Assembly (NCBI GenBank): GCA_038245905.1
Contig: JBBRRY010000002.1
Location: 160,001-224,000, forward strand
DNA: 64,000 nt
Direction: 5' to 3'
Source: Thermoanaerobaculia bacterium
GTDB taxonomy: Bacteria > Acidobacteriota > Thermoanaerobaculia > UBA5066
Shown: in pieces, positions 5,417 through 54,004 of the stretch
Position numbering within the stretch: the stretch's first letter is position 1
How the letters are laid out: each line of letters begins with the position of its first letter
Program-made: the position numbers and the translations under genes
Notes under the pieces: model-generated
What the model was told of the DNA's origin: nothing
The model's database searches: none
What the model saw: the letters and a program-made list of their open reading frames with translations, nothing else

Positions 5417-7237
5417 TCAGCGGCCCTTCGCCCGGTCGGGGCCGCCGTCACGTTTCACGTCGGCGATCTCGCCGCCGAAGAGATCCATCATCCTCTTGAC
5501 GCGCTCGTCGGTCGCAACTTTCATCTTCAGATGCTCCCTTTCGAGGGTCTGGGGGTCTGCGTTTTCGGCAGCCGCGGTGAGATCGCCGGCCGGCGGGGAC
5601 ACGCTTTCGACGGCCACCCGGGCACCGCGCCCGAGGACGGCGACGGCGGCTTCCTCGAGGACCTTCAGCATCGCCGGCTCGGCGAGGCGCCTTTCGGCGA
5701 CGGGGCTCGGAGGATCGAGAAACACGAGAACGGTCTTCCCCTCGAAGCGGATCGACGCGTCGTCGAGGACGGCCCCGAGCTGCGAGTGTTTCTTCTCCAC
5801 GGCGGCGCGGAACGCGCCCGCGGGATCGGGCGTCGAGAGAGGCTCGGGAACGATCTCCAGCGGCGTCAGACCGACGAAGCGGGGCACGTCGGAAGAAGAG
5901 GAAGAATCTTCTGTTTCGGACGGCGACGGGTGGCGGCTTCCCGATCCGTGCTTTGCCGCAGCAGCCGCAGCGTCCGAAGGAGATTTCTTAGAAGGGGAAG
6001 AAAGAGGAGAAGAAGAACCCGGGGCTCCCTTTCCTCCTCCTCCGGTTCCCGAATTTCTCCCAGCAAGAAATTCTTCTATCGGGATGAGCCTCGGCAGCTC
6101 CGCGAGCTTCAGGAGCAGCACCTCGAAGGCGAGGGCGGGCACGTCCGAACGCCTGAGCGTGCCGTCGGATTCGGACAGGAGAGAGAGCAGCCGGAGGAGC
6201 GTAGCGTATGGCGTCGTCCGCGCGAACTCGCGGATGCGTTCGGCGCCTTCTTCCGAGAGCCCGGCGGGCGGCGGAGCGCTCGCGTCGGCCGCGAGACGGA
6301 CGGCGCCGCGCACGAGAGCCGTGAAATCGTGGAGCGTGGCGCGGGGCTCGGCGCCCGCGGCCTCCAGCTCGGCGCAGCCCTTGAAGACGGCGATGCGGTT
6401 CGAGGCCAGTACCGCGCCGAGAAGCACCACGAGTTGGGTACGGTCCGGCGTTCCGAGGAGAGCTTCCACGTCTCGCACGGCAACGCCGCTTCCGGAGCGT
6501 ACGGCGGCCTGGTCGAAGAGCGAGAGGCCGTCCCTGAGGCTGCCCGTCGCGGCCGCGGCCAGGGCGGCAAGAGCGGCGCGCTCGACGACGGGTTTCTTTC
6601 CTTTCGCCTCGCGTCCCCCGTCCACGATTTCGAAGCCTTCGCGCCCGGCAATGTCGACGAGGCGGCCCGCGACCTCGTCATCCGTGAGGCGGCGGAAGTC
6701 GAAGCGCTGACAGCGCGACAGGATCGTCGCGGGGATCTTGTGCCTCTCGGTCGTCGCGAGAATGAAGACGGCGTGAGATGGCGGCTCTTCGAGAGTCTTC
6801 AGGAGCGCCTGAAAGGCGGCCGAGGAGATCGCGTGGACCTCGTCGATGATGAAGACTTTGCGGCGGTCGCGAGACGGAGCGTACGAGACGATCTCGATGA
6901 GGTCGCGCGCCTGGTCGACCTTCCCGTGCGTGGCGCCGTCGATCTCGAGCGTGTCGAGCGACCGGCCTTCGAGGACTTCCAGGCACGACGCGCACGTGCC
7001 GCACGGCGTCGCGGTGGGACGGTCCGAGGTGTTGCAGTTGATGGCCGCGGCGAGGAGGCGCGCCGTCGTGGTCTTGCCCACGCCGCGCGGCCCCGAGAAG
7101 AGGTACGCGTGCGCCAGCCGGTCGGCCGAGACAGCATTCGTCAGGGCGCGGACGATCTCTTCCTGCCCGACGACGTCCGCAAAAGTGCGGGGCCGCCACT
7201 TGCGGGCGAGGGGGACGTAGGCCGGGGAATCGCTCAC
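5417..7237 (-). CDS. dnaX: DNA polymerase III subunit gamma/tau
   Basis: LARKWRP, GPRGVGKTT, CGTCASC, IIDEVH, LLKTLEEPP and SRCQ. GTG start at 7237; the longer ORF runs across ffs. Confidence 0.95.
   Translation of the reverse strand: MSDSPAYVPLARKWRPRTFADVVGQEEIVRALTNAVSADRLAHAYLFSGPRGVGKTTTARLLAAAINCNTSDRPTATPCGTCASCLEVLEGRSLDTLEIDGATHGKVDQARDLIEIVSYAPSRDRRKVFIIDEVHAISSAAFQALLKTLEEPPSHAVFILATTERHKIPATILSRCQRFDFRRLTDDEVAGRLVDIAGREGFEIVDGGREAKGKKPVVERAALAALAAAATGSLRDGLSLFDQAAVRSGSGVAVRDVEALLGTPDRTQLVVLLGAVLASNRIAVFKGCAELEAAGAEPRATLHDFTALVRGAVRLAADASAPPPAGLSEEGAERIREFARTTPYATLLRLLSLLSESDGTLRRSDVPALAFEVLLLKLAELPRLIPIEEFLAGRNSGTGGGGKGAPGSSSPLSSPSKKSPSDAAAAAAKHGSGSRHPSPSETEDSSSSSDVPRFVGLTPLEIVPEPLSTPDPAGAFRAAVEKKHSQLGAVLDDASIRFEGKTVLVFLDPPSPVAERRLAEPAMLKVLEEAAVAVLGRGARVAVESVSPPAGDLTAAAENADPQTLEREHLKMKVATDERVKRMMDLFGGEIADVKRDGGPDRAKGR
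5983..6002 (+). repeat. Dispersed AT-rich motif copy 1 (ATTTCTTAGAAGGGGAAGAA)
   Basis: 16 bp identical to 46349-46364; 18 of 19 positions match the reverse complement of 53166-53184. Confidence 0.75.
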
Positions 7238-7258
7238 GGTCCTCGACTGTACTCGATT

Positions 7259-7392
7259 CCCCCGAGCCCCCCGATGAGTCCGGGCTATCCGCGGCGCCCG
7301 GGCCTTTCTCCTGAGTGCTGCTTCCTTCCGGATCTGACACGGTTCGGAGGGGACCGTCGCGCGGGACCCGAACTCATCCGGGGGCCCGGGGG
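7259..7392 (-). ncRNA. ffs: SRP RNA (4.5S type)
   Basis: Minus-strand TGTCAGATCCGGAAGGAAGCAGCA domain IV motif within a long hairpin, directly upstream of dnaX. Confidence 0.9.
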
Positions 7393-7456
7393 GCCGCGAT
7401 TCTAGCAGCCGGGCCCCACTTGTGTCCGGCCGCTCGCGACGGTAAAACGCGAGGAC

Positions 7457-9604
7457 GTGACCGCACCGCCCCTCCGCGTCGTCTTCATCTGGCATTTCCA
7501 TCAGCCGTGGTACCCGACCTTCGACGGCGTGCCTCCCGCGCTCCCGTGGGTGCGCCTCCACGCGCTGAAGGACTATTACGACCTCCCCGCTCTCTTGACC
7601 GAGGAGCCCCGCGTCCACCACACGGCGAACCTCGTGCCCGCTCTCCTCGACCAGATCGACCTTCTCGCGCGCGGCGGGAGCGACGCCTTCCTCGAGATCG
7701 CCCGCACGCCGACTTCGGAATGGGACGCGGCCACCGTTCGATTCGTGCGCGGAAATTTCTTCTCCGTCCATCCGCGCATCCTCGAGCGCCATCCGCGGCT
7801 GGCCGACCTCCGGAACCGGGTGGGCGCTGGTGAAGCTCTCGGAGCGTCCGACCTCACGGATCTCGTCGTGCTCTTCCATCTCGCGTGGTCCGGGCCGACT
7901 CTGCTGAAAGACCCGCTCCTCGTCCACCTCCGAAAGCGCGGGAAAGGCTTCACGGAATCCGAGAAGAACGCCCTCCTCGACCATCAGGCCGCCTTCCTCG
8001 GCAAGGTGATTCCCGCGTGGAAGCGGGCCTTCGCGTCAGGGATCGTCGAGGCCGCGACGAGCCCCTACCATCACCCGATCCTGCCGCTGCTCCTGGACTC
8101 GAGCGCGGGCCGCGACGCGCGTCCCGACCTGCCCGTTCCAGTGCCGCGTTTTTCTCATCCCGACGACGCCCGCTCGCAGCTCTTCCTCGGGCTCGCGACG
8201 TTCGAGAAGCACTTCGGCTTTCGCCCACGCGGCATGTGGCCGCCCGAGGGCGCGCTTTCGGAAGGCACACTCGCGCTCCTCGGAGAGTCGGGCGTCTCGT
8301 GGACCGCATCGGACGAGGCCGTCCTCCTCCAGTCCCTGCCGGCCGGCAGGCTCGATTTCGGCGAAGGCGACCGCGCGCGCACCGTGTTCCGGCCGTGGCG
8401 TCTCTCGGGCGTCCCGTCGCCGGACATCTTTTTCCGCGACCGGATTCTTTCGGACCGGATCGGCTTCTCGTACGCGACGTGGGATCCAGCCGACGCCGCC
8501 GCCGACTTCGTGGCGCGCCTGTTTTCGATCCGCGCCGCCGCGCCCGAGGCCGAGCTCGTCGTGCCCGTGATTCTCGACGGCGAGAACGCCTGGGAATCCT
8601 ATCCCGATAACGGCGCCCCGTTCCTGCGCGCGCTCGGCTCGGCGCTGGCCTCTCGACAAGACCTCGAAGTCGTCACGCCGTCCGAGGCGCTCGCGCGCCT
8701 CACCGCGCCGCCCGGACACCTCGAGCGCGTCGTCGCGGGCTCGTGGGTGGAGGGAACGCTCGCGACCTGGGTCGGCGCGGCGCCGAAGAACAGGGCGTGG
8801 AGCCTCCTCCACGACGCGCGCGAGGCGCTCGGCGGAGAGATCGCGGCCGCTCCAGTTCTGTCGCCCGCGGACGTACTCGCGGGCGACGCGTCGCCCGCGG
8901 TGGCAAAGGCCGCTCTGTTCGCGGCGGAAGCTTCCGATTGGTTCTGGTGGCTGGGCGACGACCACTCGTCGGCACACGACCTCGTGTTCGACGCGCTGTT
9001 CCGCCGGCATCTCGCCGATGCGTACCGCGCGCTCCATCGCCCGGTTCCGTCCGAGCTCCTCGAGCCCGTGGACCCGGTGCACGCGCCCCTCGTCGATGCG
9101 CCGCAACTGCCTCTCGGGCCGCGCGTGGACGGCGAGCCCGGGGATGCGGGCTGGAGCGGCGCGGGTCGCATCCAGGGGGGAAGCCGCGGAACGATGCAGC
9201 GCAGCGCCGGCCTCGTGAAGGAGCTCCTCTTCGGGGCTTCGGCCTCTGGAGACACCCTGTTCCTGCGCGCCGAGTCGGAAGGCGACGCCTCGAGCTTCCA
9301 CGGACGGACCCTCCGCGTCGAGTTCCTCCCGGGCCGGGACCAGGCGCCCGTCGCGGCGAACCTGCCGCTCCTTCCCGGCGTGACGGGCGAAGGCGACTTG
9401 AAGATCGCGCTCGGCGAGGTGCTCGACGTGCGCCTCCCGTGCCCGCGGGGCGCCCAGGGCGCGATCGCGTTCCGGATTTCGATCCTCGACGCGAGCGGAC
9501 GGCTGATGGAGACCATCCCCGAGGATGGATGGGTGAGATTCCGCCCGCCCGGACCCGCGTCTTCTCCGGGAAGCGTGCGACGAGCCGCGCAAACACCGGC
9601 GTAG
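7457..9604 (+). CDS. GH57 glycoside hydrolase (amylopullulanase/glucanotransferase type)
   Basis: WHFHQP, PYHHPILPLL, GMWPPEG, ILDGENAW and AEASDWFWW motifs. Confidence 0.88.
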   Translation: MTAPPLRVVFIWHFHQPWYPTFDGVPPALPWVRLHALKDYYDLPALLTEEPRVHHTANLVPALLDQIDLLARGGSDAFLEIARTPTSEWDAATVRFVRGNFFSVHPRILERHPRLADLRNRVGAGEALGASDLTDLVVLFHLAWSGPTLLKDPLLVHLRKRGKGFTESEKNALLDHQAAFLGKVIPAWKRAFASGIVEAATSPYHHPILPLLLDSSAGRDARPDLPVPVPRFSHPDDARSQLFLGLATFEKHFGFRPRGMWPPEGALSEGTLALLGESGVSWTASDEAVLLQSLPAGRLDFGEGDRARTVFRPWRLSGVPSPDIFFRDRILSDRIGFSYATWDPADAAADFVARLFSIRAAAPEAELVVPVILDGENAWESYPDNGAPFLRALGSALASRQDLEVVTPSEALARLTAPPGHLERVVAGSWVEGTLATWVGAAPKNRAWSLLHDAREALGGEIAAAPVLSPADVLAGDASPAVAKAALFAAEASDWFWWLGDDHSSAHDLVFDALFRRHLADAYRALHRPVPSELLEPVDPVHAPLVDAPQLPLGPRVDGEPGDAGWSGAGRIQGGSRGTMQRSAGLVKELLFGASASGDTLFLRAESEGDASSFHGRTLRVEFLPGRDQAPVAANLPLLPGVTGEGDLKIALGEVLDVRLPCPRGAQGAIAFRISILDASGRLMETIPEDGWVRFRPPGPASSPGSVRRAAQTPA

Positions 9605-9619
9605 AATCGCCGCCCTTCC

Positions 9620-11221
9620 ATGAAGCGCCCCCCGACGACGCTCGTCCTCGTGCTGCATGGCCACATTCCCGACGTGCTCGGGCACGGGACGTGGCCCCAT
9701 GGAGCGAACTGGCTCTACGAGGCCGCGGCCGAGACGTACCTGCCGTTCCTCGTCGCGGTCGAGCGGCTGCTCGTGGCCGGGATTCCCGTCAAGGCCACGG
9801 TCGGGATGACGCCCGTCCTGTGCGAGCAGCTCCAGGACCCGCGCTTCGCCCCGGGCTTCGACGCTTATCTCGCGCAGCGCGCGCGGGCGGCCCGGGAGGA
9901 CGAAGAACGGCTCCTCGCCGCGGGCGACGCGAGCGCCGCCTCCCTCGCCGCCTCCTGGTCCGCATTCTACGCCGGTCACCGCGCGGATTTCGCGCGCCGT
10001 ACGGACGGCCTCATCCCGGCCTTTCGCCGCCTCGCCGAGCGAGGCGCCCTCGAAATGATCGCGTCCGCCGCGACACACGGCTTCCTGCCGCTTCTCCCGA
10101 ACGACCGCGCAATCGACCGGCAGCTCGACGCCGGGCTCGCGACGCATCGGCGGCACTTCGGCCGCGACGCGCGGGGCGTCTGGCTGCCGGAATGCGCGTA
10201 TCGGCCGGCCGGCCCGTGGACATCCCCGGCGGACGGGCACGTCGAGATCCGGTGCGGACTCGAGGACTTCCTCGCGGCCCGCGGCGTGAAGTACTTCTTC
10301 GTGGAGACGCATCTCGTCACGGGTGGCCGGCACGTGCCGGCGTACGGCGGCGAAACGGATTTGCCCGAGAGCGGCGGCACGCCGTACTGCATCCACTCCG
10401 TGCGCGCCTCACAAGGAGAGAAGGTCGGCGTCTTCGCACGCGACCCGCTCTCGTCGCAGCAGGTCTGGTCCGGCAAGGTCGGCTATCCCGGCGACGGGCG
10501 CTACCTGGAATTTCACAAGAAACGGGCTCCGAGCGGCCACCGCTACTGGCGCGTCACGGACTCGAAGGTCGATCTCGGCGACAAGCTCCCCTACGAGCGC
10601 GCGGCCGTCGCCCTTGCCCTCGCGTCGCATGCGGAGCACTTCGTGAGGCTCCTCGAGAGCGCGCCGCCCCAGCCGGGCGGCGACGCACCCGTAGTCGTCG
10701 CCATGTTCGACTTCGAGCTCTTCGGCCACTGGTGGTTCGAGGGCGTGGACTTCCTCGAAGCCGTCTTCACGCGTCTCGCCGGGAGCGACAAGCTCGTGCC
10801 GCGCACGGCCTCCGAGGCGCTCGCAGCCTCGCCCGTGCCCGACGTTCTCGACCTCTCGAGCGGCACATGGGGCCGGGGCGGCGACTTCCAGGTCTGGTGG
10901 AACGACCACACGATCACCTACTGGAGGGAAGTCGACGCCGTCGAGCGCGCGCTCGAGATGTTCGAGGAGCGCCGCGCGTCGATCCCGCCCCCGCTCTTCG
11001 CGGCGCTCGAGCAGCAGGCGCTGCTTCTCCAGTCGTCCGACTGGCCGTTCCTCATCGACAACGAGGTCTCGAAGGACTACGCCGAGACCCGGATCAAGGA
11101 GCACGTGCGCGACTTCTGGCACCTCGCGCGCATGGCCGAGTCAGGGCTCGTGGACGATGCCGCTTTCGCGGCGATCGCCGACCGCGACCGCCTCTTCGAA
11201 GCCGAGCTCGCGCCCCGCTGA
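9620..11221 (+). CDS. GH57 1,4-alpha-glucan branching enzyme (DUF1957)
   Basis: LHGHIP, ETYLP, GVWLPEC, FDFELFGHWWFEG and QSSDWPF motifs. Confidence 0.88.
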   Translation: MKRPPTTLVLVLHGHIPDVLGHGTWPHGANWLYEAAAETYLPFLVAVERLLVAGIPVKATVGMTPVLCEQLQDPRFAPGFDAYLAQRARAAREDEERLLAAGDASAASLAASWSAFYAGHRADFARRTDGLIPAFRRLAERGALEMIASAATHGFLPLLPNDRAIDRQLDAGLATHRRHFGRDARGVWLPECAYRPAGPWTSPADGHVEIRCGLEDFLAARGVKYFFVETHLVTGGRHVPAYGGETDLPESGGTPYCIHSVRASQGEKVGVFARDPLSSQQVWSGKVGYPGDGRYLEFHKKRAPSGHRYWRVTDSKVDLGDKLPYERAAVALALASHAEHFVRLLESAPPQPGGDAPVVVAMFDFELFGHWWFEGVDFLEAVFTRLAGSDKLVPRTASEALAASPVPDVLDLSSGTWGRGGDFQVWWNDHTITYWREVDAVERALEMFEERRASIPPPLFAALEQQALLLQSSDWPFLIDNEVSKDYAETRIKEHVRDFWHLARMAESGLVDDAAFAAIADRDRLFEAELAPR

Positions 11222-11228
11222 GCCGGAA

Positions 11229-11318
11229 TGGCGGTGAGGGTGGGATTCGAACCCACGTTACCCTTTCAGGTAAAACGGTTTTCGAGACCGTCCTGATCAA
11301 CCACTCCAGCACCTCACC
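11229..11318 (-). tRNA. tRNA-Ser(CGA)
   Basis: GGTGAGG...ACGGT-CTCGAAA-ACCGT, long variable arm, GTTCGAATC, encoded CCA. Confidence 0.95.
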
Positions 11319-11351
11319 GCAGTCGACAGGAGCGGCGAATTATAGGGGCAA

Positions 11352-11813
11352 CTACTTCAGAAAGCTCGCGGTCACCTTCATCTTCACGGCGTTCGGCCAG
11401 TCCACGGTCTTGATCTTCATCGGAAAGCTGAGCGTGTCGCTCGTCTGACCCTTGTCCATCGTGCCCGTCCTTCCGGCGTCGGCGACGACGTTTCCCGAGG
11501 CATCGAGCAGCACGGCGCGGAGGCGCACGCGGTGGTCGACCCAGTCGGAGTTCGCGTAGCGGAATCGCACGAGCAGGAACGTGAGGTCCTTGGGATCGTG
11601 GTCTTTCGCGGCCGCCACGACCTTCTCGTCCGGGTCGTTCTGCGTCTCCACGTCCACGAGAACGCACTTCTCCCAGTGGAGATCCAGCGGAATGCGGGTC
11701 GTGCGCGGGACGTCGACCTCCTTTTCGAGGAGCGGTCCTCCGGCGGCGAGCGCAATCGGCGCGGCAAGGCAGGCAGAAACGGCCAAGACCGCTGAACGAA
11801 GCAGTTTCTTCAT
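11352..11813 (-). CDS. Secreted hypothetical protein (beta-rich)
   Basis: Signal peptide MKKLLRSAVLAVSACLAAPIALA; AAAGAGG ribosome-binding site; typical codon bias. Confidence 0.7.
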   Translation of the reverse strand: MKKLLRSAVLAVSACLAAPIALAAGGPLLEKEVDVPRTTRIPLDLHWEKCVLVDVETQNDPDEKVVAAAKDHDPKDLTFLLVRFRYANSDWVDHRVRLRAVLLDASGNVVADAGRTGTMDKGQTSDTLSFPMKIKTVDWPNAVKMKVTASFLK

Positions 11814-11899
11814 CAGATGGACCTCTTTCCGGCGCCATGGACGGGCACCACACCGGGGAGTGCGAAATGCGTGCCGGATCTTTTCTGCCGATGCGGAGA

Positions 11900-11989
11900 T
11901 GGCGGACAGGGTGGGATTCGAACCCACGGTAACCTTTCAGCTACACACGGCTTCCAACCGTGCTCCTTAAACCACTCGGACACCTGTCC
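11900..11989 (-). tRNA. tRNA-Ser(GGA)
   Basis: GGACAGG...CACGG-TTGGAAG-CCGTG, long variable arm, CCA end. Confidence 0.95.
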
Positions 11990-12019
11990 GCGAGCGACAG
12001 AACGGGGAGGATAGAAGGG

Positions 12020-12039
12020 ATTTCTTCGAATGGGAAGAG
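12020..12039 (+). repeat. Dispersed AT-rich motif copy 2 (ATTTCTTCGAATGGGAAGAG), intergenic
   Basis: One mismatch to the consensus outside the variable position; lies in the tRNA-Ser promoter region. Confidence 0.65.
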
Positions 12040-12040
12040 G

Positions 12041-13259
<1,219 letters not shown>

Positions 13260-13363
13260 TTAAGGCATGGGCCTAGGGGTGATCCGGAGTCCCAGTCTCA
13301 AACGGATAAGATATCAGAAAACGTGCCGCTCGAGTTGTCGCCGGATTTTGAGGAGGACGCCCG

Positions 13364-14719: not shown

Positions 14720-14738
14720 CCTGGCTGGCAGCGCTCCT

Positions 14739-15197: not shown

Positions 15198-15219
15198 TGG
15201 AGCCTCCGACGAAAAGTGC

Positions 15220-15234
15220 GCAAGGCCTGTGCCA
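15220..15234 (-). promoter_or_regulatory. Sigma-54 (-24/-12) promoter
   Basis: Minus-strand TGGCACAGGCCTTGC with exact GG-N10-GC spacing, 22 bp upstream of the ATG at 15197. Confidence 0.75.
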
Positions 15235-15314
15235 CTTCGAGCCGCAGGCAGCGCGGCACGCAATGTGCCCACACTCCGGCCGGCGCACATAATGCCGAGA
15301 GGAAGACGAAGACC

Positions 15315-16235: not shown

Positions 16236-16311
16236 AGTCTGGCCCCCTCGTCACCTCTTCAAGGTTGTGAGTGGTGCGCCCAGTACAGAGGAAAGGATCG
16301 GTCACGTATTC

Positions 16312-16712: not shown

Positions 16713-16859
16713 CCCTCGACTGGCTCCATCTCGCCGGGACGCTCGTTTCGGAATCGTGCACGCCCGCTCATGCGGGCTGACGCCCCTCGTATAGAGTCCC
16801 TGAATCGTGCCGGACTCCGCTCCGCAGCATTCCGACGCGCCAGGGCTCTGGAGGCTCGT

Positions 16860-42999: not shown

Positions 43000-43018
43000 C
43001 GACCCGCGCCGTTTTCCA

Positions 43019-44230: not shown

Positions 44231-44249
44231 CTTCTTTCCTCCATCGATA

Positions 44250-45497: not shown

Positions 45498-45508
45498 TCG
45501 GCGTCCTC

Positions 45509-46318
45509 TCAGGTCTTCCCGCGCCCGGAATCAGCGGGCGCTTTGAGCACGATGCGGCCCGCGAAGCGCAGGTCCGCCTCGGTCGCGGACAGGGCGTGGC
45601 GGTCGAGTTCGGGGCGAAGGGCGAGGAACGCGCGCCACAGCGGCGCGGCCTTCCCCTGTTCGGCGGCGTCGGGACCAAAGAGAAGGCGCGCCCGGGCGAC
45701 GCGGTCCGTCACGGCGAACCCCTCGGGGACGAGGGCCACGTCCGAGACGCGCGCGAGAAGCGCGGGGTCTTCCGCGCGGATGGACTCGAGGAACGCGGCG
45801 CCCCGCGTGAGCGCCGCGGCGTCGGACGCGCCGGAGAGGATGACGAAATCGTCGCTCTTCGACAGGGCCCGCCCGGAATAAGGTCCGGTAAAGCCGCCGC
45901 CGCGGTCGATCGTCCACAGCTCCCCGTCCTTGTCGGCGCGCGCGACGAGCGCGACGGGTGGCCGCGCGACGACGCGCACGGCGATCGTGTCCGGCACGAT
46001 GCGGCGCGCCGACGCGGCCGCGACCCACGACCTTTTCGAGAGCTCGGCCACCGGCTGCTGGAGATCGAGAAAAAGAAGCGGACGCCCGATCCAGGCATCC
46101 GTCAGCTCCTCGGTCTCGGCCCGGCGCGCCTCCGGCACGCCGTCCAGGACGACCCGGTTCACGGCGAAGCGCGGATGCACGCGAAGAACGACGATGCCCG
46201 AGAGCGCGGCCGTCGCCGCCAAGAGGACCAGGAGGGCGGGCAGGATCAGCCGGTGGCCCGGGCGCCGCCGGCTGGGGCGGACGGTGCGGGACGCGGGGGG
46301 GCGGTAAAAAGAACTCAT
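45509..46318 (-). CDS. ftsQ: Cell division protein FtsQ/DivIB
   Basis: Single TM, POTRA-like region, DLRF motif; located before ftsA. Confidence 0.85.
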   Translation of the reverse strand: MSSFYRPPASRTVRPSRRRPGHRLILPALLVLLAATAALSGIVVLRVHPRFAVNRVVLDGVPEARRAETEELTDAWIGRPLLFLDLQQPVAELSKRSWVAAASARRIVPDTIAVRVVARPPVALVARADKDGELWTIDRGGGFTGPYSGRALSKSDDFVILSGASDAAALTRGAAFLESIRAEDPALLARVSDVALVPEGFAVTDRVARARLLFGPDAAEQGKAAPLWRAFLALRPELDRHALSATEADLRFAGRIVLKAPADSGRGKT

Positions 46319-47727
46319 TTGGATTTTGCTTCGGATTCGGAGGAAGACGATTTCTTAGAAGGGGGAGAGAGAAGAAAATCTTCTCCGAAATGATTGACGT
46401 CGCCCGCGCCCATCGTGAGAAGGAGGTCGCCCTCTCTCATCTCGTCTTCCAGCGCCGGTGCGATTTCCGCGCGATCCGCCAGGAAACGCGCGGCGCGATG
46501 TCCGCGCGCCGTCGCGGCGTCCGCGACCAGGGCGCCCGTCACGCCCTCCCGCGGAGCCTCCCTCGAGCCATACACCGGCGTCACGAGAAGTACGTCCGCG
46601 TTCAGGAACGCCGCCCCGAACGCCGCCGCGAAGTCCTTCGTGCGGGAATAGAGATGCGGCTGGAAGAGCGCGACGACGCGGCGGTCCGGGTACGACTGGC
46701 GCGCGGCCGCGAGCGTCGCCGCGACTTCGGTCGGGTGGTGGGCGTAGTCGTCGATGACGACGACGCCGGCGCGCTCCCCCTTCTTCTCGAAGCGCCGGAT
46801 GACGCCCTTGAATTCCTCGAGGGCGCGCGCCGCGATCCCGAACGGGATCGAGAGCTCGCGCGCGATCGCGAGCGCTCCCAGCGCATTCTTCACGTTGTGG
46901 AGGCCCGGCACCTTGAGTGCGACGGGTCCCATGAACTCGCGGCCGGCGGTCGCGATGAACCGCGATCCGGAGCGCTCGAGCACGAGATCGCGCACCGTGA
47001 CGTCGGCCTGGGGCGTGATTCCGAACGTGACGACGCGGCGCGGCACGAGCGGCCGGATCTCCTGCACGTTCGGGTCGTCCAGGCCGAGGATCGCGGCGCC
47101 GAAGAACGGCACGCTCCGCGCGAAGCGCGCGAACGTCTCCTGGATGTCCGCGAGGTCGCGGTACGTGTCCAGGTGCTCGAGGTCGATGTTGTTGACGAGC
47201 GCCAGCATGGGCGAGAGCGCCAGGAACGAGCGGTCGAACTCGTCGGCCTCGGCCACGAGATACTCCCCGTGCCCGAGCCGCGCCGTCCCCACCTCGCGCA
47301 TCCGGCCGCCCACGATGATCGTGGGATCGAGGCCCGCCGCCATGAGGATCGCGCCCGTCATGGACGTCGTCGTGGTCTTGCCGTGCGTTCCGGCGATCGC
47401 GATGCCGCGTTTGACGCGCATGACCTCGGCGAGCATTTCCGCCCGCTTGATCACCGGGATCCCGGCGGAACGCGCGGCCGCCACCTCCGGGTTGCTCTCG
47501 TGGACGGCGCTCGAATAGACCACGACGTCCGCACCGGCGACGTTTTCGGCTCGATGGCCCTGGTGGACCTTGATGCCGAGTCCGATGAGGCGCTCGGACG
47601 TCTCGCCGAGCACGAGGTCCGAGCCCGTGACCTCGAGCCCGACGCTCTTGAGGAGCTCGGCGAGGCCGCACATGCCGATCCCGCCGATGCCGACGAAGTG
47701 GAGCCGTTTCACTCGGAGGAAATTCAA
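46315..47727 (-). CDS. murC: UDP-N-acetylmuramate--L-alanine ligase
   Basis: HFVGIGGIGM, GTHGKTTT, EADE, DDYAHHP and FQPH; TTG start overlaps the murG stop. Confidence 0.95.
   Translation of the reverse strand: MNFLRVKRLHFVGIGGIGMCGLAELLKSVGLEVTGSDLVLGETSERLIGLGIKVHQGHRAENVAGADVVVYSSAVHESNPEVAAARSAGIPVIKRAEMLAEVMRVKRGIAIAGTHGKTTTTSMTGAILMAAGLDPTIIVGGRMREVGTARLGHGEYLVAEADEFDRSFLALSPMLALVNNIDLEHLDTYRDLADIQETFARFARSVPFFGAAILGLDDPNVQEIRPLVPRRVVTFGITPQADVTVRDLVLERSGSRFIATAGREFMGPVALKVPGLHNVKNALGALAIARELSIPFGIAARALEEFKGVIRRFEKKGERAGVVVIDDYAHHPTEVAATLAAARQSYPDRRVVALFQPHLYSRTKDFAAAFGAAFLNADVLLVTPVYGSREAPREGVTGALVADAATARGHRAARFLADRAEIAPALEDEMREGDLLLTMGAGDVNHFGEDFLLSPPSKKSSSSESEAKSK
46350..46369 (+). 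repeat. Dispersed AT-rich motif copy 3 (ATTTCTTAGAAGGGGGAGAG)
   Basis: Lies in the MurC C-terminal extension; 16 bp identical to the dnaX copy. Confidence 0.75.
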
Positions 47728-48839
47728 GCGGCCTCCACTTCGAAGAGAAGATCGCAAAGGCGGGAAGCCGCATCCGGCGCGGCCGCGGCCGAGCGGCGCG
47801 CGGCTTCGCCCATCGTGAGAAGCCGCAGCGGATCCCGGAGGAGACTCGACAGGGCGGACGCCAGAGATTCCTCCGTCGCCTCCGCCTCCGTGACGACGAC
47901 GGCGGCGCCCTCGGACTCCAGGGCTCGCCCGTTCGCCTCCTGGTGCCCGTGCGCCGCGGCCGCAAACGGCACGAGGAGGGCGGGGCGTCCCGCTGCCGCG
48001 ACCTCGGCGACCGTCATCGCGCCCGCGCGCGAAACGACGAGGTCGGCGGACGCGTACGCCGCCGCCATGTCGTCGAGGAACTCGTGGACGAACGTGCGGT
48101 CGTGAGCGATGCCCCGCTTCGCGTAGGCCGCCACGACCTCACCGGCGCGGCCCTTCCCCGCCTGGTGGACGACGTCGAACGCGATTCCACCCGCGGCGAC
48201 ACGCAGAAGCGCGCCCGGCATGAGCCGATTCAGGATCTCGGCTCCCTGGCTGCCGCCGACGACGAGGATCCGGAGCCGCCGTTCCTTCGACCTCGAGACG
48301 AGAGAGGGAATCTCGAAAAACGCAGGACGGACGGGATTGCCCGTGAAGATCGCCCCCGGCAGTGCCGCCGCGCCCCGAGCAGTTCCGACCGCGACGCGGC
48401 GCGCGAGACGCGCCAGGATCCGGTTCGTGAGACCCGGGATGGCGTTCTGCTCGTGGATGAGCGTCGGAATTCTCCAGGCCCACGCCGTGGCCACGAGCGG
48501 ACCGGAGGCGTAGCCACCCACGCCGACGACCGCGCGCGGCGCGTGCCTCGCGAGGAGGCGCAGGGAGTCGAGGAACGCGAAAGGGAGCGTGAAGAGACCG
48601 TCGAGACGCGCGCGCCAGCCCTTGCCGACGAGCCCTTTCGCGCGCACGAGCTCGAGAGGGAAGCCGGCCTTCGGGACGAGCGTCGTCTCGAGCCCGCGCG
48701 CCGTTCCGACGAACACGATCGACGCGCCGGGCCGGCGCCGCCGGATCTCGCCCGCGAGCGCGAGGGCCGGGAAGACGTGCCCGCCCGTTCCCCCGCCCGC
48801 GATCAGAAATCCCCTTTCGTTCAGAGTGTGCTCCGTCAT
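47724..48839 (-). CDS. murG: MurG GlcNAc transferase
   Basis: GGGTGGH, HEQN, GNPVR, GGSQGA and HQEAN. Confidence 0.96.
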   Translation of the reverse strand: MTEHTLNERGFLIAGGGTGGHVFPALALAGEIRRRRPGASIVFVGTARGLETTLVPKAGFPLELVRAKGLVGKGWRARLDGLFTLPFAFLDSLRLLARHAPRAVVGVGGYASGPLVATAWAWRIPTLIHEQNAIPGLTNRILARLARRVAVGTARGAAALPGAIFTGNPVRPAFFEIPSLVSRSKERRLRILVVGGSQGAEILNRLMPGALLRVAAGGIAFDVVHQAGKGRAGEVVAAYAKRGIAHDRTFVHEFLDDMAAAYASADLVVSRAGAMTVAEVAAAGRPALLVPFAAAAHGHQEANGRALESEGAAVVVTEAEATEESLASALSSLLRDPLRLLTMGEAARRSAAAAPDAASRLCDLLFEVEAA

Positions 48840-49942
48840 GACGCGTGCTGCGAGAGGTTGAGGAGAATCCCGACCGCGAGGAGATCGGCCCAGAGCGCCG
48901 ATCCGCCGTACGAGAGAAACGGAAGCGGGATTCCCTTGGTGGGAAGCAGCGCGAGCACGACGGAGATGTTGACGAGCGCCTGCACGACGATCATCACCGA
49001 GAAGCCGATGCCGAGGAGCCGGCCGAAGGAGTCCGGCGCGTTCGCGGCGGCACGCACGCCGCGCGCGAAGAGGAACCCGAAGAGCGCGAGCACCGCGACG
49101 CAGCCGAGAAGCCCCAGCTCCTCGCCCACGATCGCGTAGATGAAGTCCGTGTACGGGTACGGAAGGAAGAACAGCTTCTGCTTCCCGTGCCCGAGGCCGA
49201 GGCCCGTGGCACCCCCCGTTCCCACGGCAATGAGCGACTGGATCGCGTGAAAACCCTTGCCGAGCGGGTCCGCCTCCGGGTGCAGGAAGGCGTGAAGACG
49301 GTCCCGCCGGTACTGCGCCATCCCCACGTAGGCCGAGAGCGTGGGCACGAGGAGGAGCGCCGACACGAGGAAGTACTTGAGGGGCAGGCCGGCGAAATAG
49401 AGCATCGCGGCGGCGATCACGAAGTACGTCAGCGCGGTCCCGAAATCGGGCTCGAGGAGGACGAGGCCCGCGAAGAGGACGACGAGCCCCGCGATCGGCA
49501 GAAGGGTCCGCGTCGGGTGGGTGACCTCTCCCTCCCGCCGCGAGAGGAGCGCCGCGAGCGCGATGACGAGCCCGATCTTCGCGAACTCGGACGGCTGCAC
49601 GGACTTGATGACGCCGAGGGACAGCCAGCGCCGTGCGCCGTTCACGGGAGCCCGGAGCAGGACGGCGACGAGCGCCCCGATTAGGAGAACGAGCCCGGCC
49701 GTGACGAGGCGAGGGTCGTTCAGGCGGCGGTAGTCGATCGACATCGCCAGGAACGCGAGCACGCCGCCGACGACGACGGCGACCGTCTGCTTGATCACGA
49801 AAAAGTACGCGCCCGCAGGAGCCGCCGACGTCGGCAGGTAGATCTGCATCGCGGACGCGCTGTAAATCATGAGGAGCCCCGTCAGGACGAGCAGCACGAC
49901 GGAGGCGAACAGGAGGCGGTCGAACGCCAGCTTCCTCGCCAT
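48836..49942 (-). CDS. ftsW: SEDS protein FtsW
   Basis: NGARRW, QPSEFAK, EPDFG, TDFI and LPFLSYGGS. Confidence 0.95.
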   Translation of the reverse strand: MARKLAFDRLLFASVVLLVLTGLLMIYSASAMQIYLPTSAAPAGAYFFVIKQTVAVVVGGVLAFLAMSIDYRRLNDPRLVTAGLVLLIGALVAVLLRAPVNGARRWLSLGVIKSVQPSEFAKIGLVIALAALLSRREGEVTHPTRTLLPIAGLVVLFAGLVLLEPDFGTALTYFVIAAAMLYFAGLPLKYFLVSALLLVPTLSAYVGMAQYRRDRLHAFLHPEADPLGKGFHAIQSLIAVGTGGATGLGLGHGKQKLFFLPYPYTDFIYAIVGEELGLLGCVAVLALFGFLFARGVRAAANAPDSFGRLLGIGFSVMIVVQALVNISVVLALLPTKGIPLPFLSYGGSALWADLLAVGILLNLSQHAS

Positions 49943-51354
49943 CAGCGCGTCCCCGCCGGCGCAGGCTCTTGCAGCGCCTTCACGAGCGCCTCGAAGACCT
50001 CGCCCCGATGCTCGAAGTCGCGGAACTGGTCGAACGACGCGCACGCCGGCGACAGGAGAACGGCGTCTCCCGGCGTGGCGTGGCGGGCGGCGTCCTCGAG
50101 AGCCTTCTCGAGCGTGCCCGCGACCTCGAGTGCGACGCCCGGCAGACCTCCGAGCGCCTTGGCGATGCCGGGCGCCGCCTTCCCGATCGCGAGAATGCGC
50201 CTCGCTTTCCGGGACGCCAGGGGCGCGAGCCGCGCGAAGTCGTCCCCCTTGTCCTTCCCGCCGAGGATGAGGTGGACCTTCCCGTCCGGGAACCCCTCGA
50301 GGCTCTTCAACGTGGCGTCCACGTTCGTCCCCTTCGAGTCGTTCCAGTAGCCGACGCCGTTCACCGTGCGCACGAGCGCCGTCCGGTGCGGGAGCCCGCG
50401 GAACGATCGCAGCGTCTCGACGGCCGTCTCGGGTGTGACGCCGAGCGGAAGGGTCGCGGCGAGCGCGGCAAGCGCGTTCTCGACGTTGTGCGCGCCCGGA
50501 AGCGCGAGGTCCGACCGTTTCGCCACGACGCGCGGGCCCTTGCCCGTCACGTCGGCGACGAAGAGGTCGTCCGCGAGCCACGCGCCCATTCCCCCGGACG
50601 ACGGAGCCCCGCGCCGCGAGAAAGCGAGGCGTCGCGCCCGCGGGCGAATCCGCGCGACGAGGGGGTCGTCCGCATTCAGGACTGCGACCTGCGCGTCGCG
50701 CTGGTTCTCGAAGATCCGCGCCTTGGCGGCACCGTAGTCGTCCATCGAGCGGTACCGGTCGAGATGATCGGGCGTCAAATTGAGATGGACGGCCACGTCG
50801 GGCGCGAAACGCCGGATCCCTTCGAGCTGGAAGGAGGACAGCTCGACGACCCACGTGCGCGGCGCCGTGCCGTTTCCGTTCGCGCCTTCTTTCGTCGCGA
50901 AGTGGATCCAGGGCGTCCCGAAGTTTCCGCAGGCGACGGCCGCGTGGCCGGCACCCCGGAGGAGCGCCGCCGCGAGGGCCGTCGTCGTCGATTTTCCGTT
51001 CGTGCCGGTCACGCCGACAGCGACTCCCGGCAGGAGGCGCGACGCGAGCTCGATCTCCGCGACGACGGGAATCGCGCGCGCCCGCGCCGCGTCGAAAACG
51101 GGAAGCGTCAGCGGGATGCCGGGCGACACGACGACGAGGTCGACGCCGTCGAGGAGCGCATCGGGATGCCCGCCGAGGACGTACCGCACGCCCGGACGCT
51201 CGGCGAGCCCCGTGAGGTCCGGCTTCGCGTCCGTGCCGACGACTTCCACGCCGCGCTCCTGGAGCGCCGCCACGGCGGCGCGGCCCGAGCGCGCGAGCCC
51301 GAAGACCGCCGCGGAGCGGATCTCGGGAAGGTCGGGGCCCAGGGACAGCGTCAT
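49942..51354 (-). CDS. murD: UDP-MurNAc-L-Ala--D-glutamate ligase
   Basis: TGTNGKSTT, ELSSFQL, DHLDR, NDSKGTN and SPACASFD. Confidence 0.96.
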   Translation of the reverse strand: MTLSLGPDLPEIRSAAVFGLARSGRAAVAALQERGVEVVGTDAKPDLTGLAERPGVRYVLGGHPDALLDGVDLVVVSPGIPLTLPVFDAARARAIPVVAEIELASRLLPGVAVGVTGTNGKSTTTALAAALLRGAGHAAVACGNFGTPWIHFATKEGANGNGTAPRTWVVELSSFQLEGIRRFAPDVAVHLNLTPDHLDRYRSMDDYGAAKARIFENQRDAQVAVLNADDPLVARIRPRARRLAFSRRGAPSSGGMGAWLADDLFVADVTGKGPRVVAKRSDLALPGAHNVENALAALAATLPLGVTPETAVETLRSFRGLPHRTALVRTVNGVGYWNDSKGTNVDATLKSLEGFPDGKVHLILGGKDKGDDFARLAPLASRKARRILAIGKAAPGIAKALGGLPGVALEVAGTLEKALEDAARHATPGDAVLLSPACASFDQFRDFEHRGEVFEALVKALQEPAPAGTR

Positions 51355-52436
51355 CGGAGCTTCAACGTCGAAAGCGCAAAGAGCGCGAAAAGGATCGCGA
51401 CGATCCAGAAACGGATGATGACCTTCGATTCCGGCCAACCGGCGAGCTCGAAGTGGTGATGGAGGGGCGCCATCCGGAAGATGCGCTTGCCGCGCAGCTT
51501 GAAGGAGCCCACCTGCAGGATCACGGAGACGGCCTCGACGACGAAGAGGCCGCCCACGAGGACGAGCAGGATCTCCTGCTTGATGAGGACGGCGACGGTC
51601 CCGAGCGCCGCGCCGAGGGCGAGCGAACCCGTATCCCCCATGAAGACTTCGGCCGGATGGCTGTTGAACCAGAGAAAGCCGAGCGACGCGCCCACGATGG
51701 CGGCGCAAAACACGGCGAGCTCCCCCGTTCCCGGAACGTAGGGCACGAGGAGGTAATTTGCGGTTTTCGCGTTGCCGGCGATGTACGCGAGGATCGCGAA
51801 CGTTCCCGAGGCGACCAGCGTGGCTCCGATCGCGAGACCGTCGAGGCCGTCCGTGAGGTTGACGGCGTTCGACGAGCCGACGACGACGATCGCGGCGAAG
51901 AGGATGTAGAAGATCCCGAGCTCCGGATGGACGTTCTTGAGGAACGGCAGCGTGATGCGCGTCGCGTCCGCGCGCCCCTCGAACAGCTTCACCGACGCCC
52001 AGGCGACGCCGAGCCCGATTGCGGTCTGCAGGACGAGCTTCTGGCGCCCCGAGAGGCCGCGGTTGTTCTGGCGCGACACTTTTCGCCAGTCGTCCCCGAT
52101 GCCGATGAGCATCGCGAGAACGGTCGCCGCGAGGGCGACCCACACGTAGCGGTTGGAGAGATCGGCGAACACGAGGGTCGGGACGAGGATCGCGAGGTTG
52201 ATGAGGACGCCGCCCATCGTGGGCGTTCCGGCCTTCACGAGATGGCCTTTCGGCCCCTCCTCGCGAATCGACTGGCCGATCTGGCGGGCGCGCAGCCAGC
52301 GGATGAGCGCCGGGCCGAGAAAGATCGAAAGGAGGAGCGCCATCAACGCCGCGTTCGCCGCGCGAAACGTGATGTAACGGAACACGTTGAGGAGCGGGAA
52401 TCGGCTGTGCAAAGGGTAGAGCAGCCAGAGGATCAT
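51351..52436 (-). CDS. mraY: Phospho-MurNAc-pentapeptide transferase
   Basis: GTPTMGG, NLTDGLDG, FMGDTG and APLHHHFE. Confidence 0.97.
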   Translation of the reverse strand: MILWLLYPLHSRFPLLNVFRYITFRAANAALMALLLSIFLGPALIRWLRARQIGQSIREEGPKGHLVKAGTPTMGGVLINLAILVPTLVFADLSNRYVWVALAATVLAMLIGIGDDWRKVSRQNNRGLSGRQKLVLQTAIGLGVAWASVKLFEGRADATRITLPFLKNVHPELGIFYILFAAIVVVGSSNAVNLTDGLDGLAIGATLVASGTFAILAYIAGNAKTANYLLVPYVPGTGELAVFCAAIVGASLGFLWFNSHPAEVFMGDTGSLALGAALGTVAVLIKQEILLVLVGGLFVVEAVSVILQVGSFKLRGKRIFRMAPLHHHFELAGWPESKVIIRFWIVAILFALFALSTLKLR

Positions 52437-54004
52437 CGTGCCGCTCCCCTGCGTTCCTCGAGCAGCGCTTTCGCCACGAGCCGGTCGTCAAAGGGCAGCT
52501 CGCGGTCGCCCACGACCTGACACGTCTCGTGCCCCTTCCCCGCGACGAGGACGACGTCTCCCGACCGCGCGAGAGAGAAGGCCTCGGCGAGCGCCTCGCG
52601 GCGGTCCACGAAGTAGCGCGCGGACTTCCCCGCCGCCTCCACGCCGGCGCGCACGTCCCGAAGGATCGCCTCGGGATCCTCGGAGCGCGGGTTGTCGGAG
52701 GTGACGACGACCTCGTCGGCGAGGAGAGCCGCGATGCGGCCCATCTCGGGGCGCTTGCCCTTGTCGCGGTCGCCACCGCATCCGAAAACGGCGATCACGC
52801 GGCCGCCGCGCGCCGCGGCGAGGGTGCGCACCGTCTGGAGCGCGCCCTCGAGAGCGGCCGGCTTGTGCGCGTAGTCGACGAGGACCGTCAGGCCGAGCGC
52901 GTTCGGCACGGCTTCGAGGCGGCCCGGGACGCTCGCGACGGCGCCCAGCCCTGCCGAGATCTCTCGAGGCGAAAGCCCGAGAGCAAGGCCGGCAGCCGCC
53001 GCGGCGAGCAGGTTCTCGGCGTTCGGGCGGCCGAGAAGAGGGGAATTTATGCTGAAGAGAAGACTTTCTTTGAAGGTGAATGTGCCAGCCACTTTGACCT
53101 CGAGGCGCGTCCCCGCGATCCCCAGCGTCGCGCGCCCGACGACGAGCGACGAGAGGCCCTTCCCCTCTTCCCCTTCAAAGAAATATTCCTGTTTTTTCTT
53201 CTCTGTCTTCTCTTCACCTTCCAAGCAAAAACCAACGACCCGATTTGCTTCGAGTCTGCTCGCGAGCTTCATCCCGTACGCGTCCCCAAGATTGACGACC
53301 GCTTTGCCGTTCTTCTTGAGCAAGCCGAAGAGCCGCGCCTTCGCCTCGAAGTAGTCGTCCATGTCGCGATGGAAATCGAGATGCTCGTGTGAGAGGTTCA
53401 GAAACACCGCGACGTCGAACGCGCAGCCCGCGAGACGCTCCAGGACGAGCGCGTGCGAAGAGCACTCGATGATCGCGGCTGTGCCGCCGTCCGCAACCAG
53501 GGCCTGAAGCATGGGCTGAAGATCCGTGGCTTCCGGGGTCGTGTGGGGGGACGCGATCGCCGCCGCGTCGCCGCCCGCGCCCCGGTAGACGATCGTGCCG
53601 AAGAAACCGCGCTTCGGGTGACGCCCCGCGAGAAGTCCCTCGAGAAGGTACGTCGTCGTCGTCTTGCCGCTCGTGCCGGTCACACCCGCCATCACGAGCC
53701 TTTCCGACGGCCTTCCGGCGAGGAGCGCCGCCACGAGACCTGCCGAGCGCCGGGGGTTCTCGACCTCGAGATACGGCACGGAGGCGGTCGCCGGCGCGGG
53801 CGCAAGTCCGAGCGCTGCCACGGCGCCTCGCCGCACGGCATCGGCGATGAAGTGACGGCCGTCCGCCTTCAAGCCGGGAAGCGCGGCGAAGAGCGTTCCC
53901 GGAGTTGCCGCACGCGAGTCGTGCGTGACCGAGAGGACCTCGGGGTCCCCCGGAGGTCCCGCGCGATGGTGCGGAACGTCCGCCGTGAGCGCGGAGAGCC
54001 TCAT
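52433..54004 (-). CDS. murE: MurE (meso-DAP-type ligase) with AT-rich in-frame insertions
   Basis: TGTSGKTTT, HTTP, SSH, EHLDFH, DYAH, GCGGDRD, DNPR and AGKGHE. Confidence 0.95.
   Translation of the reverse strand: MRLSALTADVPHHRAGPPGDPEVLSVTHDSRAATPGTLFAALPGLKADGRHFIADAVRRGAVAALGLAPAPATASVPYLEVENPRRSAGLVAALLAGRPSERLVMAGVTGTSGKTTTTYLLEGLLAGRHPKRGFFGTIVYRGAGGDAAAIASPHTTPEATDLQPMLQALVADGGTAAIIECSSHALVLERLAGCAFDVAVFLNLSHEHLDFHRDMDDYFEAKARLFGLLKKNGKAVVNLGDAYGMKLASRLEANRVVGFCLEGEEKTEKKKQEYFFEGEEGKGLSSLVVGRATLGIAGTRLEVKVAGTFTFKESLLFSINSPLLGRPNAENLLAAAAAGLALGLSPREISAGLGAVASVPGRLEAVPNALGLTVLVDYAHKPAALEGALQTVRTLAAARGGRVIAVFGCGGDRDKGKRPEMGRIAALLADEVVVTSDNPRSEDPEAILRDVRAGVEAAGKSARYFVDRREALAEAFSLARSGDVVLVAGKGHETCQVVGDRELPFDDRLVAKALLEERRGAAR
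53064..53229. repeat. Three copies of the AT-rich motif in murE (+53064-53083, -53165-53184, -53210-53229)
   Basis: CTTTCTTTGAAGGTGAATGT; ATTTCTTTGAAGGGGAAGAG; TTTGCTTGGAAGGTGAAGAG. Confidence 0.7.

Follow-up and report, generated by a model that had tools for sequence, protein, structure and literature searches.

What kind of element is a short AT-rich DNA word that returns, in different reading frames and on both strands, inside essential genes of a GC-rich bacterium? The question is raised by a stretch of 64,000 nucleotides, hereafter the window, from a Thermoanaerobaculia bacterium (assembly GCA_038245905.1, contig JBBRRY010000002.1, positions 160,001 to 224,000 of the forward strand), in which an initial annotation made from the letters alone had pointed out six copies of a 20-bp motif, in dnaX, murC and murE and in front of a tRNA-Ser gene. 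As described below, the motif is a genus-specific, cis-acting DNA word that a force at the DNA level keeps in at least 19 species; its copies, which we call arms, have the head-to-head pair as their working unit, and the word is neither a transposon nor a hairpin. That annotation had overlooked the head-to-head pairing, the degenerate half-arms in dnaX and murC, and the specificity to the genus. We tentatively suggest, stopping short of calling it probable, that the paired word is served by a putative lineage-specific sequence reader which recognises the arms singly.

The word and its abundance

The source genome of the window (G000; 3,797,265 bp in 113 contigs, 67.8% GC) is a metagenome-assembled genome (MAG), as are all genomes compared here. 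In it the word reads GATTTCTTWGAAGGKGAAGAGGG, that is, 22 AT-rich bases, with about 18 purines on its 5' side. An alignment of 154 copies shows a weak tract of about 18 purines and then a sharply bounded core, (A/T)TTTCTTWGAAGGKGAAGAGGG, with no conserved position outside the tract and the core. Using a 26-nt matrix derived from the genome's own copies, with a main cut-off of at least 24 bits, we found 236 matches in G000 (about one copy per 16 kb) against 18 in a reversed-genome control, which confirms the observation made in the window on a far larger scale; the consensus given by the initial annotation has 3, 23, 65 and 122 matches across the genome at up to 0, 1, 2 and 3 mismatches, respectively. 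The word is not palindromic, since the arm is asymmetric and its self-complementary part is limited to TTCT-T-AGAA, and copies on the plus and the minus strand are similar in number in each of the 19 genomes of the genus. A full-text literature search, which did not extend to supplementary files, found no description of the motif.

Placement in genes and conservation at the DNA level

With a crude gene caller of our own, which called 3,232 genes and covered 93% of G000, 172 of the 236 copies fall inside genes, which leaves 64 between genes or at their edges. With these 64, copies are about 4 times enriched in non-coding DNA, which makes up about 7% of the genome. As for the coding copies, 94 of 172 are antisense and 78 of 172 sense, and every frame that stays open is used. 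When synonymous codons were shuffled within genes (five shuffles), 14-19 copies were found against the 172 observed, an enrichment of about tenfold, and the signal is therefore one of the DNA rather than of the proteins. A comparison with such a codon-shuffled null had been proposed by the initial annotation as a means to refute its claim, and no refutation came of it. Its statement that the motif is translated in different frames and from either strand is borne out by the antisense and sense copies, and its view that conservation acts on the DNA and not on the peptide agrees both with the enrichment over the shuffle and with the AT-rich codons retained in orthologues of the genus.

The variable base of the word, W, is distributed in accordance with the reading frame. 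It is A in 45 of the 64 intergenic copies, in none of the 24 and none of the 35 coding copies whose frames would turn A into TAG or TAA, and it is T in none of the seven coding copies of the frame where T would give TGA. Family matches were obtained for 20 of 23 host genes in a Pfam check, and the hosts beyond the window include LigD, DnaE, UvrD, MnmE, RsmH, alanine racemase, acyl-CoA synthetase, glycosyltransferases and Ser/Thr kinases.

Arms face each other in pairs

The orientation of neighbouring arms follows a strict rule. A facing partner of at least 16 bits lies within 400 bp of 79 of the 154 strong arms (at least 28 bits), a back-to-back partner near only 4, and same-strand partners are found downstream of 11 and upstream of 6. 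Similarly, neighbouring sites of at least 20 bits that are 30-500 bp apart are arranged +- in 65 cases, -+ in 4, ++ in 15 and -- in 4, and at distances of 0.5-5 kb the facing excess is gone (11 +- vs 30 -+). The working unit is a head-to-head pair. In G000 the start-to-start spacing of 85 such pairs ranges from 35 to 424 bp with a median of 125 bp, and no robust period of helical phasing was found in these pairs or in 100 pairs of other loci. BLAST of 150-nt flanks recovered the partner arms only, flanks and interiors being otherwise without shared sequence.

There is no sign that the two arms of a pair have been selected for mutual base pairing. True partners share 18.12 identical core positions vs 17.85 +/- 0.23 for shuffled partners, and their duplex energy is -31.73 kcal/mol vs -31.77 +/- 0.58 kcal/mol for permuted ones. 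An Rfam scan found only the signal recognition particle (SRP) RNA and tRNAs in the window, and over eight pair-bearing genes it gave two weak matches (E about 0.7) that are far below threshold.

The word is confined to one genus

A 19-mer of the word, allowing at most one mismatch, is present in all 18 relatives of the genus with 31-167 copies each, which together with G000 makes 19 genomes; none of 12 genomes from two other families in the same order has it. The 12-mer core gives a similar picture, with 120 copies in G000, 58-187 in each of the eight other genus genomes sampled, 0 copies in four genomes of four sister genera of the same family, and 0-9 copies in the other 108 genomes of the class, which is not above the backwards control. 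The exact 22-mer occurs in at least 118 stretches of species-representative genomes, and the 80 records listed are all Thermoanaerobaculia or Acidobacteriota MAGs. In the sister genus represented by G072, a 400-kb sample (about a tenth of one genome) contained no enriched AT-rich 12-mer that could be a dialect of the word. The word is confined to one genus of Thermoanaerobaculia. Carriage by viruses was considered and rejected, the one exact 19-mer match being a chance look-alike in a coding part of a phage contig of 42% GC.

The arms of the window

The arms in the window, their hosts and the genes beside them are as follows, with bits scored on the 26-nt matrix.

332..357, minus strand: weak echo in an asparaginase-family gene, 8.1 bits, indistinguishable from chance
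5417..7237, minus strand: dnaX, host gene (Pfam DNA_pol3_delta2, DNA_pol3_gamma3, DNAX_ATPase_lid; start from our own gene call)
5980..6005, plus strand: strong arm in the dnaX linker, 41.0 bits, antisense to the gene and read as SSPSKKS
6065..6079, minus strand: degenerate facing half-arm in dnaX, consisting of the purine tract and ATTTCTT
11900-11989, minus strand: tRNA-Ser(GGA)
12017..12042, plus strand: arm in the 51-nt spacer between the zinc-ribbon gene and tRNA-Ser(GGA), 32.9 bits
12041-12598, minus strand: zinc-ribbon gene
12157..12182, minus strand: weak partner (9.1 bits, one base short) that faces the 12017 arm at a distance of 140 bp
46315..47712, minus strand: murC, host gene (Pfam Mur_ligase, Mur_ligase_M, Mur_ligase_C)
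46347..46372, plus strand: arm in the C-terminal tail extension of murC, 35.4 bits, antisense and read as SPPSKKS
46372..46386, minus strand: truncated facing half-arm in murC, abutting the arm at 46347..46372
52433..54004, minus strand: murE, host gene (Pfam Mur_ligase, Mur_ligase_M, Mur_ligase_C)
53061..53086, plus strand: arm in murE, 25.5 bits, antisense and read as TFTFKES, facing the arms at 53162 and 53207
53162..53187, minus strand: arm in murE, 41.5 bits, sense and read as YFFEGEEG
53207..53232, minus strand: arm in murE, 28.6 bits, sense and read as GFCLEGEE, at a site kept across the genus (GFFLEGEEG)

Pfam confirmed dnaX, murC and murE, all on the minus strand, as the host genes. 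As for the six copies initially reported, five are recovered at no more than three mismatches (5983+, 12020+, 46350+, 53165- and 53210-) where chance would give 0.02, and the sixth (53064+) is weaker, with the 25.5 bits listed above. Two further echoes had been mentioned. That at 12157-12182 has a low score and yet lies where the facing partner of the 12017 arm would fall: it is inside the zinc-ribbon gene, with position and orientation that fit the pair rule, and its score alone is not above noise. The other, at 332-357, is indistinguishable from noise, as a reversed window yields five matches of at least 8 bits. The proposal that the copy at 12020 is the promoter of the tRNA-Ser gene is unsupported, no sigma-70-like match being found there.

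In dnaX the half-arm falls on the conserved peptide IEEFL, written ATA GAA GAA TTT CTT, and since it scores below 8 bits on the matrix its support comes from codon comparison only. Among the 10 of 17 DnaX loci that were aligned (3 of the genus and 7 of sister genera), the strong arm is present in 3/3 genus loci and 0/7 sister-genus loci, with linkers of similar length, and the seven sister-genus loci write IE(E/D)xL as ATC GAG GAG/GAC followed by GC-rich codons. In murC the half-arm lies on the conserved C-terminal peptide GEDFL (GGA GAA GAT TTT CTT). The comparison displayed 15 of 25 fetched MurC loci, 6 from the genus and 9 from sister genera. A facing, minus-oriented arm of at least 17 bits occurs in the tail of 3 of the 6 genus loci, and in one relative (G003) the same codons, there encoding GEEFL, form a full arm of 22.6 bits. 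All nine displayed sister-genus loci have neither arm nor tail and end in GEExLxxGGxx*; sister genera write GGC GAG GAG TGG CTC at the place of GEEFL. The stop of murC overlaps the start of an ftsQ-like gene (ATGA, 46315-46318), so the AT-rich murC tail lies wholly within coding sequence.

MurE provides the widest comparison, with 30 aligned loci of which 19 belong to the genus and 11 to other families (the outgroups G019 and G024 are unpublished, and nothing depends on them). The sense arm, of at least 18 bits at murE nt 763-817, is found in 18 of the 19 genus loci and 0 of the 11 outgroup loci; the facing arm (minus in gene orientation, at least 18 bits) is found in 13 of the 19, and the 11 outgroup loci have no arm. 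The second sense copy in the window, at 53162..53187, is a tandem copy specific to G000 and one relative. In the 18 of 19 loci the sense arm is written TTT/TTC TTA/TTG GAA GGN GAA GAG, and GFFLEGEEG appears genus-wide as TTT TTC TTA GAA GGN GAA GAG GGG. Four sister genera have F-S-L-E-G-like MurE peptides in GC-rich codons (for example TTC TCG CTC GAA GGC in G072), and their segment is 54-56 residues long vs 80 here. The sequence between the arms is the enzyme's own conserved beta-hairpin, and the interior has the same orientation in all 19 genus loci, as judged from contigs and not from raw reads.

Beside the first MurE arm, 13 of the 19 genus genomes, and none of the outgroups, carry a GC-rich insertion, which in 12 genomes encodes (A/T)EQTRPAALAGAV... 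or VEHTRPAAL... and in G008 is frame-shifted. The PLKRE and EQTRPAAL stretches of MurE were looked for as a second dispersed motif, and they are not repeated elsewhere in G000. In the murE of G008 (L015) the frame is lost along the conserved stretch between the arms and later restored; this loss may come from long-read indel errors or be a real disruption.

How arms arise, persist and turn over

Arms are often written by switching codons to rare AT-rich ones that encode the same or nearly the same residues, as at IEEFL, GEEFL and FSLEG, and others are made by small insertions. The initial annotation had said that GC-rich codons for the same peptides in orthologues would speak against it; in the comparisons above AT-rich codons are kept within the genus, and GC-rich codons for similar peptides are found outside it only. 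In RsmH and MnmE, compared with PDB homologues, one arm of each pair involves no change of length and the other is accompanied by an insertion of 8-9 residues. An arm is found 133 nt from the start in each of four kinase paralogues. The one at C24:11311-14058 has its pair between the VL(K) and HP motifs, whose spacing we take to be normal, and its sequence gives no sign of an insertion.

The 118 loci of other genus genomes gave 184 strong sites (at least 30 bits), of which 127 could be mapped onto G000. The orthologous place in G000 has a motif of at least 16 bits at 92 of these 127 sites and lacks it at 35; several of the loci, which were picked by exact match, are the same place in different MAGs, and the counts are not independent. 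Of the 35 missing sites, 29 differ by an indel; in one such case a compact pair of about 100 bp in an operon spacer is present or absent between close relatives, and the sequence flanking it is 94% identical. Low-complexity sequence makes the edges of the indels ambiguous, and no clear target-site duplication was seen there. Comparison of 16 orthologous sites gave 62-100% identity in the core and, ungapped, about 40% in the adjacent 60 nt on either side. Arms are therefore made by substitution as well as by insertion, and the core is held as the sequence round it drifts. The suggestion that the AT-rich patches might be lineage-specific insertions is only partly right, as recoding and small insertions are mixed.

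Contigs of four public DNA runs gave no evidence of excision or inversion at the arms, and one contig (record X4/17) spans the murC arm without gaps. Several contigs of such runs end at or beside arms (window positions 46350, 53176 and 53315), as would be the case for repeats that break short-read graphs.

The kinases that carry arms form tandem arrays. In G000 a Ser/Thr kinase-PD40 array lies at C24:11311-30014 together with C35:12897, with an arm in each copy at 133 nt, and on the G011 chromosome (C1:2,298,768-2,319,738) seven arm-bearing kinase copies follow one another about 2.6 kb apart, all on one strand. Two unusual reading frames of G000 also contain pairs: at C7:91016-92800 one frame joins NamZ and MobB, with the pair in, and just beyond, the C-terminal MobB part, and at C2:70296-71840 one frame joins a solute-binding domain and an ABC permease, with the pair at the joint. 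Reading frames may become fused or lengthened where arms lie in operon spacers.

Chromosome distribution and associated enzymes

On the closed G011 chromosome the copies are spread throughout, the coefficient of variation of their gaps being 0.99 vs 0.98 +/- 0.11 for random placement, and they show no strand switch along its length. A regularly spaced anchor was rejected, as the gaps match random placement. Arm strand and local GC skew, which is a weak proxy here, are not linked (51/30 vs 41/26, p = 0.87); on this result and the lack of a strand switch in G011, a polar word like Chi or the FtsK-orienting polar sequences (KOPS) was rejected too. A site like parS, matS, or the binding sites of Noc (NBS) or SlmA (SBS) was rejected because the word is asymmetric, exists in hundreds of copies and is random over G011; the chromosome-organising site of the matS, NBS or SBS kind that the initial annotation had offered as a candidate finds no support on these non-palindromic, numerous and randomly spread copies.

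Among mobile-element enzymes, the Y1 transposase (PF01797) of the type found in insertion sequence (IS) IS200 and in the tyrosine transposases (RAYTs) that accompany repetitive extragenic palindromes (REPs) is absent from G000 and present in one of the 11 other genus genomes, and in the sister genera it is found in 12 of 12 (g12) and 7 of 8 (g10) genomes. RAYT mobilisation was rejected with Y1 missing in 11 of 12 genus genomes, and writing templated by a reverse transcriptase was rejected with RVT_1 in 0 of 8. The genus seems to have lost the Y1 and RVT_1 mobile-element enzymes while gaining the paired word. A search of five genus genomes found rve-type transposases in every one of them; the distribution of DDE_Tnp_1 and DDE_3 is patchy. 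In G000 there are two rve loci, an IS21-like and an IS3/IS481-like one, both of them ordinary IS, and all 236 sites are more than 6 kb away from either. A master gene was sought near dense clusters of arms, where only housekeeping genes were found. ComEC (PF03772) occurs in 12 of 12 genus genomes and in 25 of 29 sister-genus genomes without the word; being equally common in word-less sister genera, it does not discriminate.

REPs are individually palindromic and extragenic, form doublets of fixed spacing and go with a RAYT gene; here, in contrast, the arm is asymmetric, 172 of 236 copies are intragenic, the spacing is variable and Y1_Tnp is absent in 11 of 12 genus genomes. The resemblance to REPs, to bacterial interspersed mosaic elements (BIMEs) and to REP doublets forming hairpins (REPINs) lies in the hundreds of short repeats per genome, often arranged as inverted doublets (PMC3733652). 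Taken together, the lack of extra complementarity between partners, of a conserved body, and of a RAYT or reverse transcriptase argues against a hairpin, a miniature inverted-repeat transposable element (MITE), a REPIN or a Rickettsia palindromic element (RPE).

Explanations for the paired word

A possible explanation, which we favour with reserve and would not yet call probable, is that the facing 22-base words constitute a direction-independent bracket, a new class of cis-element, and that the pressure to retain it suffices for rare codons to be imposed, throughout the species of the genus, on conserved positions of the essential MurE, MurC, DnaX, DnaE, RsmH and MnmE. Each arm would be recognised on its own by its sequence, most likely by a DNA-binding protein, and this factor would have arisen or switched its specificity at the base of the genus. 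As a facing pair is symmetric from both sides, the reader might work in either of two ways: two bound readers could contact each other across the interior, like a synapse or a bridge, or a tracking machine such as RNA polymerase, the replisome or a translocase could meet an entry arm and then an exit arm in whichever direction it moves. Arms sit wherever they are tolerated, in operon spacers, linkers, tails and conserved peptides such as EEFL, GEEFL and FSLEG, and the base that would make a stop is replaced where it would fall in frame.

Several results weigh against such a reader. No gene for it was found, the genes adjoining 10 strong intergenic arms being ordinary housekeeping genes; the spacing is variable and without helical phasing, which is unusual for two proteins that touch; and about 40% of the strong arms are solo (62 of 154 have no partner of at least 12 bits). 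Moreover, single strands across pairs are predicted to form long hairpins (-68.9 and -81.8 kcal/mol, z about -3.6), which makes a structural role conceivable, and 29 of the 35 sites missing from G000 are clean indels of 28-188 nt, which take in either a single arm or both arms of a pair together with the unique GC-rich interior, and look like insertion or precise loss, as a mobile element would give.

By analogy, the word might be a DNA uptake signal, of the kind of the uptake signal sequence (USS) of Pasteurellaceae or the DNA uptake sequence (DUS) of Neisseriaceae, an explanation that we regard as doubtful. A competence receptor of the genus would favour DNA bearing the word, and biased uptake with homologous recombination would drive it into the genome through mutations and small indels, in whichever frames the proteins permit. 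USS and DUS have a density of about one per kb, and the word here, at about one per 16 kb, is some tenfold sparser, and it is longer (about 22 nt plus the purine tract). Its restriction to one lineage, its copies over the whole closed chromosome and the ComEC of all 12 genus genomes would suit uptake; however, ComEC is found as well in 25 of 29 sister genomes that lack the word. USS and DUS are described (PMC2817400) as products of mutation and recombination, not insertion, as similar in number in both orientations, strongly biased in frame, favouring poorly conserved residues, and forming dyad-symmetry pairs outside genes. These traits are present here, where a short, non-palindromic, lineage-specific word is likewise written on both strands into tolerant coding DNA; as to origin by mutation, the frame bias, stop avoidance and recoding agree with it, and the indels at 29 of the 35 missing sites do not. 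That same text reports their spacing as more even than random, whereas the spacing in G011 is random. Furthermore, an uptake bias leaves unexplained the 79 facing vs 4 back-to-back pairs within genes, and these are not terminators, for the pair rule holds inside genes at 35-424 bp and hence gives no terminator hairpin. The uptake signal named by the initial annotation is the closest analogue, but it does not account for the strict orientation of the pairs. A selfish, non-autonomous mobile element like a MITE or RPE, with arms as terminal inverted repeats, a transposase in trans and old copies that persist only through being harmless, is unlikely. It would agree with the facing layout, with pairs cleanly present or absent between close relatives (29 of 35 absent sites being indels), with the roughly fourfold enrichment in non-coding DNA and with rve transposases in 5/5 genus genomes. 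Yet there is no shared body, interiors being unique and 35-424 bp long, and they can be native coding sequence, such as the MurE beta-hairpin and segments of RsmH, MnmE and kinases; many arms are recoded without a change of length; no facing excess exists at transposon distances (0.5-5 kb); Y1 is missing in 11 of 12 genomes and RVT_1 in 8 of 8, with DDE_Tnp_1 and DDE_3 patchy; and an AT-rich 22-bp word kept at 92 of 127 places in a genome of 68% GC is not neutral decay. RPEs, which we take to be 100-150 bp long, conserved over their full length and inserted as a unit, are also repeats within open frames that are translated in different frames, but here only about 26-40 nt are shared and many copies are recoded from native codons. 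The RPE-like in-frame repeat put forward by the initial annotation is accordingly disfavoured, having neither a conserved body nor an explanation for the many arms made by substitution at unchanged length. The pairs resemble MITEs (PMC11602168) in facing terminal repeats, small size and presence/absence indels, and differ in having no conserved body or uniform length and no autonomous partner with the same ends that could be found.

It is quite unlikely that the arms act in transcripts, by forming a long-range stem, offering a site to an RNase or signalling a pause. A pair is the same from both sides, so in every crossing transcript the purine-rich arm precedes the pyrimidine-rich one; this symmetry would explain why pairs only face each other, whatever the strand of the gene (78 arms sense, 94 antisense), and the predicted stems just mentioned are strong. 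However, a reader tracking on DNA predicts the same symmetry, partners show no excess complementarity, some 40% of arms are solo, no Rfam family is matched, and a stem of 22-40 bp in essential frames would hamper translation. It is very improbable that the pairs are intragenic invertons, at which a recombinase would flip the interior and produce phase-variable forms of a protein. In a preprint (bioRxiv 10.1101/2023.03.11.532203), invertons have inverted repeats that flank short intragenic segments with a consensus common to many loci, and the pairs here bracket such segments as well. Unlike those, the hosts are essential enzymes: the MurE interior, a conserved part of its enzyme, stands the same way round in 19 of 19 genus loci, again on contigs only, and flipping would destroy the proteins DnaE, DnaX, MurC, UvrD and RsmH. 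Moreover, inversion requires inverted repeats and leaves the facing-only pairs unexplained.

A bracket recognised arm by arm is the reading that we tentatively retain, and in agreement with the initial annotation, which did not recognise the motif as a known site, the word fits no described family, failing the tests of REP/REPIN/BIME, MITE and RPE and those of polar and palindromic words. Chi, KOPS, USS/DUS, REP and parS each opened a part of core chromosome biology, and the present word is of comparable scale and yet fails defining tests of each of them. Its sharp onset, in every genome of the genus that was searched and in none of the four sister genera sampled, makes a reader findable by phylogenetic profiling. 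The word also shows how far pressure on the DNA can prevail in essential genes, over codon bias and even over the sequence of the protein. In practice, arms break short-read assemblies, and in annotations they give rise to apparent fusions and tails of genes; the word can serve as a specific marker for this uncultured genus.

Neighbouring RNA genes

Two features stand close to arm-bearing places of the window. Immediately upstream of dnaX is a bacterial small SRP RNA (7275-7373, minus strand, 66.6 bits). A second tRNA-Ser, with the anticodon CGA, is located at 11229-11318 on the minus strand, 580 bp from tRNA-Ser(GGA), with an open reading frame of 153 aa between the two.

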